A DNA stretch of 37,846 bases from a virus (taxonomy: Duplodnaviria > Caudoviricetes), in IMG/VR virus record IMGVR_UViG_3300016665_000270, positions 1 to 37,846 of that record. The stretch is one strand, 5' to 3'. The translations under genes and the position numbers were made by a program. The notes under the pieces were generated by a model, which saw only the letters and a program-made list of their open reading frames with translations, was not told the origin of the DNA and searched no databases. Shown here piece by piece: positions 1,472-18,100 of this stretch (position 1 is its first letter; each line of letters begins with the position of its first letter).

Positions 1472-2478
1472 TGGCTATCGAAACTTTAGAGTGGTATCCG
1501 ATCGCCAATGCCACGGTCAGCGGCAACACCGTCACGAATGACAATGGCGGGTCAGATGCCTGCACGACGAATGCCACCACTGGGCCGGACTCGGGAGCCA
1601 GCACGCTCAACGCGCTCACGGAAAATCAGGACTGGGAGTTTCGCTGCCGTTTGACTGGCCGTGATCCGAACGGGAGGGCGTGGGTTGGGTTGGCCAGTGC
1701 TGACGTGGCATTCGGCGCAACGCCGCTTAATTACACGCTGTGGCAATACTGCCTGCATGTCTCAACAGAAATCTGGTCGTCGGCAAACCCGCCACATCCG
1801 GCAGGCTCTGTGTATGTCTACGAGGGATCAGCCACGCCCAAGACATGGGTGGATGGCATCTGGCAAAGCAACGGCCAGCAGATCAGAATCATATGCCTCG
1901 GCGGTGTGGTGCGGTATTACGTTGATTGCACTTTGATTTACAGGTCATTGAATGCCCCTGTATACAACCTCGAAGCGGTTGTTGGCTTCGCTTGCTACAA
2001 TATGGCGGTGACTGATGCAGAAGTCGTCACGGGGCCAATGGTCGGCGTAGGGACTGGCGCCATAGCGGAGGGTGACGCGAGCGGATTTGGCTGTCGAGGA
2101 TCCTGGACAATTCCCACGCCGACGGATCTCCCCCAGCCGCCGACGGTCAATGCGCCGATTGCTGTCAGGTTTCAGGAGGTAGTCAGCGACTGGCGCGAGT
2201 ACTCAGCTGACTTCAGCGACCAGACCAGCATCAGCAATACCAAGCTGGCGCAGCGAATCAGAATGTTCGAGGTTGAATGGCAGGGATTATCACTTGAGCA
2301 AGCGGCATTGCTCGACGCGCATTATCAGTCAACGGCGGGTGGTCTGCCTTTCGCGCTGACCATTCCCGGCACGAATGAGCGCGTGGTCAATTGCCGATAC
2401 GCCAGCTACTCAATCAGCCCACATACTCGAATTTGGTCGCAGACTCGGACGGCAACGATAATCAGGTACACGACGTAA
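1471..2478 (+). CDS. Minor tail protein: N-terminal beta-sandwich (SPRY/lectin-like) domain plus C-terminal Dit/gpM-like domain
   Basis: TAATG coupling puts the start at 1471 (MAIETLEW), not 1387. The C-terminus 'FEVEWQGLSLEQAALLDAHYQ..GGLPF' parallels that of the upstream gene. Confidence 0.7.
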   Translation: MAIETLEWYPIANATVSGNTVTNDNGGSDACTTNATTGPDSGASTLNALTENQDWEFRCRLTGRDPNGRAWVGLASADVAFGATPLNYTLWQYCLHVSTEIWSSANPPHPAGSVYVYEGSATPKTWVDGIWQSNGQQIRIICLGGVVRYYVDCTLIYRSLNAPVYNLEAVVGFACYNMAVTDAEVVTGPMVGVGTGAIAEGDASGFGCRGSWTIPTPTDLPQPPTVNAPIAVRFQEVVSDWREYSADFSDQTSISNTKLAQRIRMFEVEWQGLSLEQAALLDAHYQSTAGGLPFALTIPGTNERVVNCRYASYSISPHTRIWSQTRTATIIRYTT

Positions 2479-8332: not shown

Positions 8333-8570
8333 TGTAGCCGCGCTCTTTCAGCGTGGTATAGGATTTGATGCGCGTTTTGGCGAAGATCGCTTTGGGAGTC
8401 TTCGATAGGCGCAGCTTTCGTTCCCGTTGCATTCGGTTGTTTTTCTGACGACATCTCCCGCACCGCTGGGTTTCCTCCGCGTCACGGATCTGACAGTCAA
8501 CGCAAATCCCCTGCGCAATCAATTGATCACGCAGGGGGCGGCCAGTTTTGATAATTAACGTTCGTCTCAT
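8325..8570 (-). CDS. Small basic Zn-finger-like protein
   Basis: CVDC...CGRC; R/K-rich; ATGA-coupled to tmk. Confidence 0.6.
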   Translation of the reverse strand: MRRTLIIKTGRPLRDQLIAQGICVDCQIRDAEETQRCGRCRQKNNRMQRERKLRLSKTPKAIFAKTRIKSYTTLKERGYIK

Positions 8571-9133
8571 TGCCCAAGCACCTCGTCAATCAGCTTGATG
8601 GCGTCGGCCAGGACTTGGTCAGGCGACTGGCTGGCGCCGACAGGCTCCATCCAACCATCGTCTGCCAGCTCGGCATACCCTGCATGTACGCGCTTAAGCC
8701 GCGCAATTTCGCTTGCAGTTATACAGCCGTCACGCGCCATTAAACGCTTCACGGCAACACCTACCGGCACGTCCAGCCATATTCGCAAACTGAGGTCTAT
8801 TCCCTCGGTGGCGATGTCGTTCAGCGAGTCAATTAAATCAAGGTCAACACCATCGCCGTATCCCTGATAGGCTGCGGTCGAGAGATCGAAACGGTCGATC
8901 AGGATCAGGTCAGTTCTCAGCACGATCTTTTTGATCAGCTCGCAGTGGGCGCGCCGGTCGGCCATTAGCTGCATCGTTGCGATGAATGGGTCAGTTGATG
9001 GAATATCTGATCGTGGCTCAGACGTCTGCCAGCACAGTAGGCCAACGCCCTCATAATACTCGCGGATTTTGCTGGCCAGCGTGCTTTTCCCGCTGCCATC
9101 GATGCCCTCGAATGTGATGATTTTTGCGGCCAT
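8567..9133 (-). CDS. tmk: Thymidylate (dTMP) kinase
   Basis: ITFEGIDGSGKST P-loop, EP motif, ADR, DRF..S..AYQG. Confidence 0.93.
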   Translation of the reverse strand: MAAKIITFEGIDGSGKSTLASKIREYYEGVGLLCWQTSEPRSDIPSTDPFIATMQLMADRRAHCELIKKIVLRTDLILIDRFDLSTAAYQGYGDGVDLDLIDSLNDIATEGIDLSLRIWLDVPVGVAVKRLMARDGCITASEIARLKRVHAGYAELADDGWMEPVGASQSPDQVLADAIKLIDEVLGQ

Positions 9134-10756: not shown

Positions 10757-11083
10757 TTACCACGTCCACCGGCGGGGCGGTTCCGCGTGGTAATCCTCCC
10801 CCTCATCCTCAAGGCGCTTGGTCGTGCAGGAGGGGCATTCGAAATGCCCCTCTTGATCAGCTGACCAGCCAATCTCAGTCAGAAAAGATGCCAGCTCCCG
10901 CTCTTGCTCTGCGGCCTGACGTTGCAATTTACCATCGGCGCCCTTGCCGACAAGCGGATGGGGACAGGGACCGGGCGCTTCCTCCGTGTATTTGTGCCAG
11001 ACGCCACACGTCCAGCAGCCGATATGCAGGTCATAGCCGATCATTTCGGCCAGCTGGGTCAAGTTCATTCCGTGATCGTTCAC
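10757..11083 (-). CDS. Hypothetical Cys-rich (Zn-binding) protein
   Basis: CWTC, CPH, CPSC; GGAGG RBS; coupled to upstream gene. Confidence 0.65.
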   Translation of the reverse strand: MNDHGMNLTQLAEMIGYDLHIGCWTCGVWHKYTEEAPGPCPHPLVGKGADGKLQRQAAEQERELASFLTEIGWSADQEGHFECPSCTTKRLEDEGEDYHAEPPRRWTW

Positions 11084-11403
11084 TCCCCACCTCCCTCAAT
11101 CTTGGCCAGCAATTGCTTTGCCTGACTGCTCAGGTTGCGCAGAGTATCCGCTAAAGCTGCCGCTGACATCATACTGCCATAGCCGCTGTTCGTTGATGTG
11201 GCTACCCGCGTTAATAGCTCATACATCTCAGATGCCGCCATCATTAGACAAGCGTAATAATGACGTTGCTCAGAGTCTTCGCCAGGTAGATGACAATGAG
11301 CCTCTTCGCAGACGCAAGTCTGAATGTAACGATTGGTATCTGGGTGACGAAGTGAGTAGCCCATATCGCGTCCCTTAAGAAGCCCGTCAATGTCCAGTTT
11401 CAT
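11080..11403 (-). CDS. Hypothetical protein with 'AA(S/P)EMxELL...AKIEG' C-terminal module
   Basis: ORF track; coupled start and stop; tail shared with the neighbouring gene. Confidence 0.65.
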   Translation of the reverse strand: MKLDIDGLLKGRDMGYSLRHPDTNRYIQTCVCEEAHCHLPGEDSEQRHYYACLMMAASEMYELLTRVATSTNSGYGSMMSAAALADTLRNLSSQAKQLLAKIEGGGE

Positions 11404-11428
11404 TCCCCACCTCCCTCAATCTTGGCCA
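11084..11428. repeat. 25-bp direct repeat TCCCCACCTCCCTCAATCTTGGCCA at 11084-11108 and 11404-11428
   Basis: Identical copies; each encodes ..AKIEGGGE and carries the RBS of the next gene. Confidence 0.9.
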
Positions 11429-11612
11429 TCAGTGCGTCAATTGCCTTCAAATCAATTTCCGCATAGCCGTCACTGCGCAGATTGGCATCGGCCACATACT
11501 GTCGTACATCGCGCAGCAGCTCCAGCATCTCAGGCGCGGCGTCACGGATGCGCGCATCTCTGTCCATAGCGGGTTGCACTGATAAATCGTAGTCAATAAT
11601 CAGCCTACTCAT
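11400..11612 (-). CDS. Hypothetical protein ('DARIRDAAPEMLELL...AKIEG' type)
   Basis: Common small phage early-protein pattern; coupled to neighbours. Confidence 0.7.
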   Translation of the reverse strand: MSRLIIDYDLSVQPAMDRDARIRDAAPEMLELLRDVRQYVADANLRSDGYAEIDLKAIDALMAKIEGGGE

Positions 11613-12108: not shown

Positions 12109-12156
12109 TGTCTTTCTCCTGATTACCGGCGGCTTCATTGCCGCTTCGATGATGTG

Positions 12157-12230: not shown

Positions 12231-12270
12231 AATTTTCCACTTGACAATTACGTTGAGTCTCCGTTACCGT
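12231..12270 (+). promoter_or_regulatory. Rightward promoter (PR-like)
   Basis: AATTTTCC-ac-TTGACA-N18-TACCGT. Confidence 0.65.
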
Positions 12271-12277
12271 GACGGCG

Positions 12278-12520
12278 ATGGATATGAACGAGGCAACAAA
12301 TCAGCTGTCAGTGGCGCAGGCGGCGGAATTTCGCGGCGTGTCGCGCCAGACTGTGGGCGTATGGATCAGGCGGCAGTGGTTACCTGCCACGCGTATCGGG
12401 TCGCGCTGGGTCGTTGACCGTCAGGTTTTGGCCGGATTCGAGGCTCCGCGCGGTGCGTACCGTGCGCGACGCCCCCGGCCTGTAGAGATTGTAGATGGTG
12501 CGTCAGATGGGGGCATTTGA
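12278..12520 (+). CDS. Excisionase/MerR-like (HTH_17) DNA-binding protein
   Basis: 'LSVAQAAEFRGVSRQTVGVWIRRQWLPATRIGSRWVV'. No SD sequence; ATG at 12278 lies about at the predicted +1. Confidence 0.8.
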   Translation: MDMNEATNQLSVAQAAEFRGVSRQTVGVWIRRQWLPATRIGSRWVVDRQVLAGFEAPRGAYRARRPRPVEIVDGASDGGI

Positions 12521-13088
12521 CGCATCAGCTGGCTGCTTGTTCTTTGGGTGCAGACTAATCCAATCTGCGACAGGCATGGCGAAGTAAGGGGCGATCCCCC
12601 GGGCAGCCAGCAGATTTATCCGAGCGGGGATTGGGAGCCGCTGTATCAACACGGTATAGTTAAGGTTAATGGTCGCAACGCGAGTAGGCCTTATTTGTTC
12701 CGTGCCCATTCCCCCATCGGGCCAAGATTGAGACATCCGACGACGGGCCACACACTCCCCGCGATAGCCTAACGGCTTTCAAATCGTCGGAAATCCGGCA
12801 ACGAACAGCAGCGTTGCCGCAGGAGAGGGGACAATACTTGCGCTCCTCTCCTCTCACCAGTTTGGGATGCTCGCTTTGTTCTCGCCGTGCAGTAGGCTGT
12901 GAGGTAGCCGGCAAGCGTCGTGCTATCAGCTGCGATCAGTAATGACTGAAATAGTTATTGATCGGCTGACAATTAAGTAAAAAAATAGGGATCCCCCGGC
13001 GAGCATCCCATCAAGTTCCGGCGTGTGCCGGATTTTCTCCTGATAGTGACTGGACTCCTCGGGGTGGCGTGTGCCACCCCACTTTTTT
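12497..13088 (+). ncRNA. Putative large structured non-coding RNA (~600 nt)
   Basis: No credible ORF; many nested stems with G-U pairs favouring the + strand; ends in an intrinsic terminator (see findings). Confidence 0.7.
13061..13088 (+). terminator. Intrinsic terminator
   Basis: GGGGTGGC-GTGT-GCCACCCC-AC-TTTTTT. Confidence 0.85.
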
Positions 13089-13101
13089 ATGAGGTGATGA
13101 G

Positions 13102-13242
13102 ATGGAGCTGATTTTCTGGGCAATTTTTGTTCTTGGTGGCATCAACTACCGGCCAGTGGAGCCGGACTATCTGACGGCACCACGGCGGATCGAGCCGGAG
13201 CAGCCTGTCAGACCTGTGCGGCAATCTCGCCCAGGTAGGTAA
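13102..13242 (+). CDS. 46-aa small protein with hydrophobic N-terminus (not in the ORF track)
   Basis: GAGGTG RBS; MELIFWAIFVLGGINYRPVEPDYLTAPRRIEPEQPVRPVRQSRPGR*. Confidence 0.55.
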   Translation: MELIFWAIFVLGGINYRPVEPDYLTAPRRIEPEQPVRPVRQSRPGR

Positions 13243-13282: not shown

Positions 13283-13442
13283 TTGCGGTCGGGAGTGACG
13301 CCCCGCGAGACAGCCGCAAAAGGGAAACTGAAACGAGACGACATCAAAGCCTTCTGAGAAGGCGGGTCAGGCAACCGACAGGCCGTCAACCTGTCATCAG
13401 TTTCCCACCTGCCCGTTTTCTCAGAGGGCTTTTCTATTTTTT
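13283..13442 (+). promoter_or_regulatory. Structured 5' leader/attenuator upstream of the replication initiator
   Basis: Long stem 13346-13371/13408-13433 followed by a T-tract; additional pairing 13322-13331/13397-13406. Confidence 0.65.
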
Positions 13443-13451
13443 GAGGTGACA

Positions 13452-15451: not shown

Positions 15452-15645
15452 GAGAACTGATTCATTCAGTAGCAAGGGCAATCTGCACGGCTGGCGCGTG
15501 CCTGCTGGCCATTATCCTGATCGCAGGATATTTCGAATGGTGGTCATGGGAAGAGCTGACCACGCCAATTCAGGCGATCATCGGCGGGTGGTTTATCTCC
15601 CTGTTGATCATGATGGCCAGCCACGATCGGAGGGTGACACGATGA
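15448..15645 (+). CDS. Small two-TM membrane protein
   Basis: GTGA coupling on the left, ATGA on the right; two hydrophobic segments. Confidence 0.6.
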
Positions 15646-16439
15646 ACCAGTATCATGATCTTGTCCAGGGCGTCCTTGATCACGGCATCACCCGCGACGA
15701 CCGGACAGGCGTCGGCACTCGCTCTGTATTTGGTCGCCAGTTGCGCTTTGACCTGCGTGCTGGCTTCCCCCTGCTGACCACCCGAAAGATCCACTGGCGG
15801 TCAATTGTGAGCGAATTGTTATGGATGCTGCGCGGGGATTCCAACGTCCGATCGCTGCAGCGCGACGGAATCACCATCTGGAACGAATGGGCAGACGAGA
15901 ATGGCGACCTTGGGCCGGTCTATGGTGTCCAATGGCGGCATTGGGGCGGCGATCAACTGAAGCGAGTCATCAACGAGATCCGCACCAATCCGACCTCCCG
16001 ACGGCTGATCGTAAGCGCCTGGAATGCGGCGGAGATCAACCGAATGGCACTCCCCCCGTGCCACGCTCTGTTTCAATTTCACGTCGATCTGCGCAGCCTG
16101 ACCGATGGATATCTCGACTGCCATCTCTACCAGCGGTCATCAGATGTCTTTCTCGGCCTGCCGTTCAATATTGCGTCCTACGCCCTGCTGACTCATATGG
16201 TAGCGCACGTCTGCGGCCTCAATGCTGGCGATCTGATCATCTCGATTGGTGACGCTCACCTGTACCGCAACCACGAGGAGCAGGCGCGGCTCCTGCTGAC
16301 GCGCGATCACCTGCCAGCACCCGCGCTGCGGCTCAACCCTGATCTATGGCGCGGTCAGATTGATCGGTTCACGGCTGAGGATATCAGCCTCGAAAACTAC
16401 CAGTACCACCCGGCAATCAAAGCGCCGGTGGCAGTATAG
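15642..16439 (+). CDS. thyA: Thymidylate synthase
   Basis: Start MNQYHDLV; [55 protein letters not shown]. Confidence 0.97.
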
Positions 16440-16452
16440 GAGGAAACACACA

Positions 16453-17145
16453 ATGGCTTTGAAATGGCATAACGCAGCCATCAAAATGGCGAAAGAAGGG
16501 CGCACCGCCGAGCAGATCATGGACGGCGTGGGAATCTCCGCCGACGTCTACCACAGGCACTGTCAGCGCAATCCGGATCTGGCCGCGCAGCTCCCGCGAG
16601 TGATCAAAATCGACGAACCGCCGATCCTTACTGCGGAGATTTCCCTTATCGCTGCGATCGATCGCAATGGTGGGCTTGGGAAAAACGGCGACTTGCAGTG
16701 GCACCAATCAGCAGATCTTCAACGATTCCGATTTTTGACCCATGGGCATACTGTAATCATGGGCCGGAGGACGTATCAATCATTAAACATCGTTGCGCTT
16801 CCTGATCGGAAGCTCGTGGTTCTAACGAACAGGAAGAATTTTACTGTTGACCATCCTGATGTCCAGATTGCGTCATCCCTCGTGATGGCGCTGCTGGATG
16901 CGCAACAGGCAGGGGCCGAAAAGATTTTTTTGGCTGGCGGCGAAGAGGTCTACACCCTTGGTCTCGGTTTTGCGGACAGAATCTACCTGACCGAGATCGA
17001 CACCGCAATCAATCGGCCTGACGTTGTGTTTCCGATTTGGGATCTCCCGCACTGGGATCTGATCGAGACTCGCGGCCCATATCGGGCCGATGACAGCAAC
17101 CAATATCCCTACACCTACAAAACCTATACCCGGAGGCAAAAGTGA
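16453..17145 (+). CDS. folA: Dihydrofolate reductase with ~60-aa N-terminal HTH-like extension
   Basis: LIAAIDRNGGLGKNGDL.W..SADL.RF, VIMGRRT..S, LP.R..VVL, GG.EVY, RIYLTEI; GGAGG RBS. Confidence 0.92.
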   Translation: MALKWHNAAIKMAKEGRTAEQIMDGVGISADVYHRHCQRNPDLAAQLPRVIKIDEPPILTAEISLIAAIDRNGGLGKNGDLQWHQSADLQRFRFLTHGHTVIMGRRTYQSLNIVALPDRKLVVLTNRKNFTVDHPDVQIASSLVMALLDAQQAGAEKIFLAGGEEVYTLGLGFADRIYLTEIDTAINRPDVVFPIWDLPHWDLIETRGPYRADDSNQYPYTYKTYTRRQK

Positions 17146-17471
17146 TAGAAGAACTGACCAACGCTCAACGACTCTGCGACCTGCTGATTCTTGATCGGCT
17201 GGCATCGCAGGCCTATACGACCTATCTCAACCGCGCGCAGGCCGCGCGGAATGCTGGCCACGAGGATGAGGCGCAATTCTACGCCGATCGGGCGGACGCG
17301 ACCTTAATCGCAACAAACGAAATCCACAAGCTGAGAGACAAGGCCATTGCCAAGGCTCTTATTGAATGGGCGCAGCTGGACATCCTCGATTTCCGGCTTC
17401 ACGTCGAGCGGCTTGGGCTGACAATCCCCGCGCCAATCCTGCGGGATATGATGGAGGAGGTGACCAAGTGA
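17142..17471 (+). CDS. Hypothetical helical protein
   Basis: Coupled to folA and dcd; GGAGG RBS. Confidence 0.7.
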   Translation: MIEELTNAQRLCDLLILDRLASQAYTTYLNRAQAARNAGHEDEAQFYADRADATLIATNEIHKLRDKAIAKALIEWAQLDILDFRLHVERLGLTIPAPILRDMMEEVTK

Positions 17472-18100
17472 TACTCAATGACCAACAGATCCGCGCACGA
17501 TGCGAATGGGACGCTCCGCCAATGATATCGCCATATGTCTACACTCAGTGCCGTGAAGTGATAACCATAGACAATCCGTTGCAGCTTACCAGTCGCACTA
17601 CACCCGTAGTCAGCTATGGTCAATCATCATTCGGATATGATATCCGACTAGATGCTACTGTAATAGATGTGTTTAGAAGCGAGATGCCATTTCTTGGACA
17701 GATGATTGATCCGAAAGCGTTTGATGGCAAACAAACGCTAGTCCATCAACTGCCGGAACGTGATGAGACCGGGATCTTTTACACACTCCAACCCCGCGCC
17801 TATGCCCTTGGCGTAAGCGTCGAGACGTTCGATATTCCGCTCAACGTCCTCGGGATCTGTTATTGCAAATCAACCTATGCCCGATGCGGCCTGATGGTCA
17901 ACACCACGCCCCTCGAACCTGGTTGGCGCGGTCAGCTGGTCATCGAGCTGGCCAACCTGACCGACCTGCCGATGAAGGTTTATGCCAACGAGGGGATTGC
18001 CCAAGTGGTTTTCTTCGAGGGCGACCAGCCTTCAATCACCTACGCCGACAGGTCTGGCAAATATCAGGATCAGAAAGGAATCGTAACGGCGCGAATATGA
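17468..18100 (+). CDS. dcd: dCTP deaminase
   Basis: GTG start (ILNDQQI); VSYG.SSFGYDIRL, KSTYARCG..VNTTPLEPGW.G.L.IE..N, YANEGIAQ, Y....GKYQ.Q. Confidence 0.93.
   Translation: MILNDQQIRARCEWDAPPMISPYVYTQCREVITIDNPLQLTSRTTPVVSYGQSSFGYDIRLDATVIDVFRSEMPFLGQMIDPKAFDGKQTLVHQLPERDETGIFYTLQPRAYALGVSVETFDIPLNVLGICYCKSTYARCGLMVNTTPLEPGWRGQLVIELANLTDLPMKVYANEGIAQVVFFEGDQPSITYADRSGKYQDQKGIVTARI

Follow-up and report, generated by a model that had tools for sequence, protein, structure and literature searches.

A predicted array of shuffled, structured RNA modules behind the early HTH gene of a siphophage

The gene-free gap that follows a small HTH gene in this phage holds a real, conserved structured RNA (positions 12497-13088, + strand), whose modules are reordered, duplicated and dropped in related phages. 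The window that we analyzed, 37,846 bases long, spans an entire virus record with head and tail genes of the siphophage type, and in it this region takes up about 590 bases between an HTH_17 gene and a terminator. Judged by sequence comparison, it is a genuine, conserved and previously undescribed set of phage RNA modules. On balance, we favor reading it as a polycistronic array of independently folding modules, the early transcript of which would be processed into small stable RNAs. One giant molecule of the GOLLD/ROOL type, which is how the original prediction saw it, is probably not the form that this region takes.

The setting is that of an early control region. A PHROGs scan of 45 ORFs identified thymidylate-pathway genes and an O-like replication initiator, and no integrase. 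Among the four sequencing runs that cover the region, two are labeled freshwater metagenome. The features of the region, all on the + strand, are as follows.

12241-12270 (+): sigma-70-type promoter, TTGACA at 12242-47 and a -10-like TACCGT at 12265-70, scoring below the threshold of the consensus scan
12278-12520 (+): HTH_17 (excisionase/Cro-like) gene, the first cistron (PF12728, E 1e-8)
12496-12527 (+): hairpin across the HTH stop codon, overlapping the last HTH codons (z -7.8)
12528-12611 (+): module A, closing stem 12528-36/12603-11
12539-45 (+): single-stranded box of module A, GUUCUUU
12588-12600 (+): hairpin of module A, GGGG-CGAUC-CCCC, with variable cargo between the box and this hairpin
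12619-12721 (+): optional long hairpin X, with AGAUU linkers on both sides and pairing probabilities of 0.94-1.0
12730-12791 (+): module B, with a GAGACA lead-in, closing stem 12737-43/12784-90, a CCCGC motif and a GCC-UAAC-GGC hairpin
12796-12862 (+): hairpins C1 (12796-12819) and C2 (12821-12852), then a pyrimidine linker ending CCA-GUU
12863-13010 (+): module A', a second, degenerate A, closing stem 12863-74/12999-13010
12878-83 (+): box of A', GUUCUC, the cargo being a CAAGCG hairpin and a long hairpin
12988-97 (+): hairpin of A', GGG-AUCC-CCC
13017-13032 (+): small hairpin ahead of the terminator, a site that also has a hairpin in the L002 family
13061-13088 (+): intrinsic terminator, the likely end of the array transcript; the blocks of relatives also close with terminator-like hairpins

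A TTGAC...TAnnnT promoter lies directly ahead of the HTH start codon, with the same layout in all nine phages examined. Since the start codon is only 7 nt past the -10 box, the HTH mRNA is likely leaderless and the array likely sits on the same transcript, so that gene and array would together form one leaderless transcript. The replication gene lies downstream of the terminator, preceded by a second promoter (13251-78) and a structured leader. Between terminator and promoter is a 46-codon ORF (13102-13242, +) with a hydrophobic start and no Pfam match, in which strains differ at 13 of the 18 positions of 13120-13137; the L002 family and L380 have at its site a 47-codon ORF, alike among themselves. 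On the opposite strand, a hairpin at 12129-12152 (-), at the start of the leftward transcript, is conserved in L002, L003, L008 and L193.

Structured non-coding blocks occupy the same site, after the leaderless HTH gene, in eleven related phage records (locus numbers such as L002 denote these relatives), and the 12 blocks that were folded are all non-coding, structured and 300-740 nt long. Relatives were collected through the replication protein, which gave 7 and then 14 loci, three of them with a homologue of about 400 nt in the same slot that is hardly detectable by blastn. With a core pattern, L010 and several metagenome contigs belonging to the same close family joined the set, and a pattern for the conserved leader of the replication gene led to more distant phages. 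A blastn search of phages (50,697 records, E 1) and plasmids returned no match to the array. The metagenome scan (36 of 64 parts) yielded 119 loci, the true matches among them being close L002 relatives only; a second leader pattern yielded 22 loci and no new block. In genome contigs the leader pattern hit 120 loci, and HMMs recognized neither leader nor array at any of them. Sets of 401 genomes each from three phyla were scanned with the replication-protein profile: Acidobacteriota and Chloroflexota gave one distant match each, at loci without leader or array, and Planctomycetota gave none. Relatives of the thymidylate synthase are spread over many phyla.

The blocks differ from one another in the order and number of their modules. 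B precedes A in seven lineages, A precedes B in the L002 family, and the window reads A-B-A'. L174 has an A and no B, and L193 and L179 have two As each, the second A of L193 being located past the terminator, with a U run at its end. Whole hairpins turn over as well, as seen in an insert of about 70 nt in L042 and a tRNA-like insert in part of the L002 family. Five of the 12 blocks contain tRNA-like T-loop units (L003, L181 with two, L201, L180 with two, and L380), in which the T-loop is kept and the anticodon arm is extended or missing; one such unit scores 37 bits as an Rfam tRNA. ARAGORN reported 0 tRNAs in 14 loci, the window has none, and Rfam searches of 6 and 8 related loci gave nothing relevant apart from one tRNA. 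The units include 1714-1795 (-) of L181 and 3421-3501 of L003, and one of those in L181 has a promoter of its own ahead of it.

Module A combines a constant layout with changing contents. A closing stem is followed by 1-3 nt, the box G(U/G/A)UCUUU, a stretch of 30-170 nt with unrelated hairpins, a hairpin of 4 bp whose loop is NGAUC, 1-2 nt and the second strand of the closing stem. Across the fetched loci, 2.76 Mb with both strands and overlaps included, a descriptor of this layout matched 19 distinct copies, all within the array slot. A looser descriptor brought in L380 plus one probable false match (about 300 kb of whole records), and a third, relaxed one, applied to the slots only, added L181 and the degenerate second copy of the window, 12863-13010; all were composed after the motifs had been seen. 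The closing stems comprise about ten unrelated sequences, all still pairing: in 11 of 11 representatives each strand pairs over 6-11 bp with its own partner, while crossed stems average 2.7 bp and reach 6 bp in 8 of 110 cases. Covariation in module A lies above that of 500 out of 500 shuffles, as measured on an alignment (A5) that was fitted to the structure, in which 74% of the cells pair and lineages differ by one base in the register of the stem. The covariance model R1 recovered the held-out divergent copy of L165 (E 7e-4) and part of the L181 copy (E 0.025), and missed A', which the relaxed descriptor had picked up. In 151 Acidobacteriota genomes R1 gave two matches at E about 0.007, as expected by chance, and a scan for the GAUC hairpin returned 34 loci, known members only.

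Module B, introduced by GAGACA, folds into a three-way junction whose tetraloop is UAAC or GAAA; it is found in nine of ten lineages and is closed by a stem that exists in four covarying sequences. Its CCCGC motif is looped in most lineages and paired in the predicted fold of the window. Behind B come one or two hairpins, often with a CCA-(A)GUU end, and counterparts of C1/C2 are seen in the L002 family, L165, L180, L181, L201 and L380. The CAAGCG hairpin, inside or after A, recurs in 6 of 10 lineages, and L380 and L181 also have a hairpin at the HTH-stop site, followed there by a U run. No conserved helix between modules was found when the B motif was compared with the rest of the block and with the leader.

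Natural strains of the phage differ in this region as well. A deletion of 12616-12726 (111 bases) removes the whole of hairpin X in three of the four runs, and in two of the four the apex of X (12651-12711) is swapped for 21 bases. Strain-level covariation rests on 40 of the 183 substitution rows, among which seven substitutions fall in the element: six are at unpaired positions of the centroid fold and the seventh displayed turns a C-G pair into U-G. B-C is nearly invariant among strains, and the HTH gene varies: contigs over 12712-12873 show 0-1 strain differences across 109-162 bases, against 8-9 over comparable lengths in the HTH gene, where eight of the ten displayed differences are at third codon positions.

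The nine stem pairs listed in the original prediction are all complementary, most of them with a pairing probability of 0.82-1.0; the long hairpin placed at 12926-12969 consists of two helices offset from each other, 12926-32/12963-69 and 12933-43/12954-64, and the terminator announced after it was located at 13061-13088. The interval 12480-13110 folds better than 20 dinucleotide shuffles (z -4.91), and so does its reverse strand (z -5.35). Both strands thus fold well, and folding energy gives no choice between them; the + strand, which had been proposed, is backed by a promoter ahead of the region, by its terminator and by the tRNA-like pieces that relatives carry. Among the 126 windows (200 nt each) of a genome-wide fold scan, where z averages -0.53 with an sd of 1.38, two outside the element score below every one inside it, and z alone is consequently not decisive. 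Long-range pairings did less well. The helix 12624-30/12756-62, proposed as part of a pseudoknot, has a probability of 0.0 in a folding model that cannot form pseudoknots, and a local competitor (12626-35/12705-14) reaches 0.99-1.0; moreover, its 5' strand is lost outright in the strain variants of three of the four runs, with the deletion described above. The long-range stem 12789-800/13026-37 likewise has a probability of 0.0, compared with 0.98 and 0.96 for two local hairpins, both of which have counterparts in relatives, and the GCAGA/TCTGC stem reaches 0.12. A coding role had also been considered; the element contains four alternative ORFs, none with a Pfam match, and the one scanned in PHROGs has no match there. 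The window has no gathering-level Rfam match and four weak local ones at chance level. What stands, then, is a structured + strand RNA without an Rfam family; the pseudoknot, the longest-range stem and the single giant RNA are not supported.

The changing order and number of modules, the absence of helices beyond chance in the comparisons made and the RNWUU linkers together lead us to read the block as an array of independent RNAs. RNWUU, given as the RNase E core motif of Salmonella in PMC5222698, occurs at the 5' edge of seven of 12 A modules and at 8.6% of background positions (p 2e-5), in a post hoc test on related lineages in which the uridines of the motif are partly the first bases of the stem. 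It is missing from the other five, among them the intact A of the window, where RNWUU is found at 12612 and 12725, both unpaired, and next to A' at 12859. In the scheme that we propose, the array would be transcribed early from the HTH promoter, and host RNases would cut the transcript into several small stable RNAs acting in trans. An enzyme of the RNase E type, which the host may not use, would cleave within the AU-rich linkers, immediately upstream of the closing stems, and tRNA-like units and units with a CCA end would be handled by RNase P and 3' trimming, much as phage tRNA clusters are. The C-rich motif of module B-C would be offered to some RNA or protein.

The nearest working analogy would be the transcript of a phage tRNA cluster that includes further stable RNAs, for example RNAC and RNAD of T4, which are described as small phage RNAs transcribed with tRNA-type units (PMC3014915, PMC9697503). 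The likeness is that of small phage RNAs co-transcribed with such units, the processing of the array being predicted from its linker motif and its CCA-ended units. In contrast to RNAC/RNAD, which are classed as late RNAs, the array follows an early HTH gene, its tRNAs are absent or degenerate, its modules are shuffled, and there is no sequence homology (blastn, 50,697 phage records, E 1). A group II intron or a known self-cleaving ribozyme was also considered and rejected, with no Rfam model match and no reverse transcriptase among the 45 ORFs scanned; likenesses to group II intron, SRP, twister and rRNA words had been noted by eye and have no model support.

Because the invariant single-stranded bases of module A equal the boxA core, we tentatively suggest, as a guess much more apt to be wrong than right, that A may be a boxA-like strand in a nuclease-resistant frame, binding host NusB-S10. 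Among 12 A boxes, eight read GTTCTTT, two GATCTTT, one GGTCTTT and one GTTCTCG (A' of the window); the GYTCTTT core is exact in eight, and the L002 family and L193 deviate at position 2. The gamma-proteobacterial consensus, which may not be that of the host, is GYTCTTTAANA (10.1101/091223), and an A follows the core in none of the 12 boxes, although it does in the second A of L179, a further copy. The array box thus shares with the boxA of rRNA operons, the NusB-S10 site, a G-x-UCUUU core in an untranslated transcript, but lacks the AANA tail, has U, G or A at position 2 and sits in a stem-closed module with a GAUC hairpin. Its G-x-U-C could pair with the GAUC loop to give a compact pseudoknot, a pairing proposed by eye, without covariation. 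Binding of NusB-S10 by A would either shield the untranslated transcript from Rho or, once A is released, act as a decoy. The bolder version, which we consider unlikely, is that A is a phage-made, nuclease-proof decoy soaking up NusB-S10 and throttling host rRNA synthesis early in infection.

Several other readings have to be weighed against an array of processed modules. One large, ornate RNA, consisting of the whole block or of a B-C-A core with exchangeable outer domains, that would self-assemble like ROOL or like GOLLD with its 14-mer cage, for example via palindromic GAUC loops, is a possible but rather improbable alternative. Size (400-730 nt), phage context and embedded tRNA-like units recall GOLLD, GAUC is self-complementary, and the B-C-A order is common: seen in seven lineages and again with A' in the window, it also fits one multi-domain RNA. 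However, the GOLLD/ROOL class that had been named for this region finds no match. GOLLD RF02032 (a model of the conserved 3' region, run without a GOLLD positive control) and ROOL RF03087 each match 0 of 5 records, the window and four relatives, at E<=10; as a positive control, the L. salivarius ROOL scored 130.4 bits in cmscan. The segment that had been likened to GOLLD/ROOL belongs to the cargo of A, which varies, and relatives do not keep it; pattern scans with this 5' cargo of the window gave 1 and 12 loci, all unrelated. GOLLD, the linker of which sometimes contains tRNAs (10.1101/2024.12.08.627333; PMC6582537), is likewise a phage-borne large structured region; it has a tRNA or pseudo-tRNA inside, where five of the 12 array blocks have tRNA-like units and the window has none. 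The array is shorter, its domain order is not fixed and no conserved pseudoknots were found in it. ROOL, averaging 581 nt (PMC5737381), is similar in length and phage context, but has six junctions, three pseudoknots and intertwined 5' and 3' parts, whereas the parts of the array are separable. Nor does the array have the fixed architecture of ROOL, since its modules vary in order and number, L174 doing without B, and the proposed long-range helices are unsupported. In addition, the B motif pairs with downstream sequence no better than with that of other phages (p 0.43), and the GAUC loop is changed in L181 and in the second A of L179.

The nut and put systems are cis-acting antitermination sites, and module A could be such a site, recruiting Nus factors for read-through of the terminators before the replication genes. 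A boxA-like core beside a pentaloop hairpin, lying between a Cro-like gene and an O-like replication gene with terminators downstream, suits this idea, which we nevertheless hold to be unlikely: no A is present on the leftward transcript or elsewhere in the scanned records, bar the one probable false match, the replication gene has its own promoter (13251-78), the boxA tail is not conserved, and B, C and the tRNA-like units are left unexplained. The second A of L193, at the end of its transcript and past the terminator, could not antiterminate in cis. Less probable still is that module B is an antisense regulator like C4 of P1/P7 or its fellow, the CI RNA of P4, with CCCGC pairing to the conserved GGCGGGU of the replication-gene leader. 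That leader segment is the best match in five of nine phages (5-7 bp of complementarity), yet complementarity does not exceed that of shuffled leaders in any of the nine (P 0.07-0.88), the leader varies without compensatory change (L380), and near-identical arrays are paired with four different leader classes. Like the modules, C4 is small, structured and encoded in an early operon of a phage, and it is released from a precursor described as an RNase P substrate (PMC11143913), but there is neither an Rfam C4 match nor significant target complementarity. Equally remote is a role of the stems at the DNA level, as operators or as hairpins for recombination or an origin, or the idea that hairpins inserted again and again have left them behind as debris. 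Cargo turnover is fast and the reverse strand folds equally well, as this would have it; against it, multi-branch structures, conserved loops, G-U pairs, tetraloops and tRNA-like units all lie on one strand, and B-C is more conserved than the adjacent gene.

A second conserved structured RNA, of about 160 nt, lies at 13284-13445 (+), between promoter 13251-78 and the replication gene. Every related phage examined has this RNA, in front of genes that are not the same throughout, and G005 has it twice; Rfam gave no match. Between its 5' part and the apex of its long terminator-like hairpin runs a helix of 9-10 bp, for which at least four covarying sequence classes exist, and pairing is conceivable between a GUGAC loop and the GUCA apex. 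We regard this leader as a candidate attenuator, riboswitch or stand-alone small RNA. Elsewhere in this 38-kb siphophage, thymidylate kinase, thymidylate synthase, DHFR and dCTP deaminase are encoded at 8570-9133 and 15645-18100, and a 33-base direct repeat, 94% alike (11079-11111 and 11399-11431), lies at the starts of two adjacent leftward genes that both weakly match phrog_1273.

Within the literature covered, to which the supplementary files of the 224-motif paper do not belong, we came across no account of such modules; the paper on 10,006 viral RNA candidates (PMC10690425) gave no match in six of its files, and three others could list them. The modules add two covarying RNA families absent from Rfam 15, with the replication-gene leader as a third. 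They present a small siphophage with a shuffled operon of structured RNAs and without a real tRNA cluster, which bears on the purpose of phage stable RNAs such as T4 RNAC/RNAD, GOLLD and ROOL, and they caution that a folded gap of 600 bases in a phage may be several modules instead of one giant RNA. If the decoy idea were true, module A would be an RNA-only host-takeover factor, its dose set by module duplication, within a plug-and-play operon of small RNAs.
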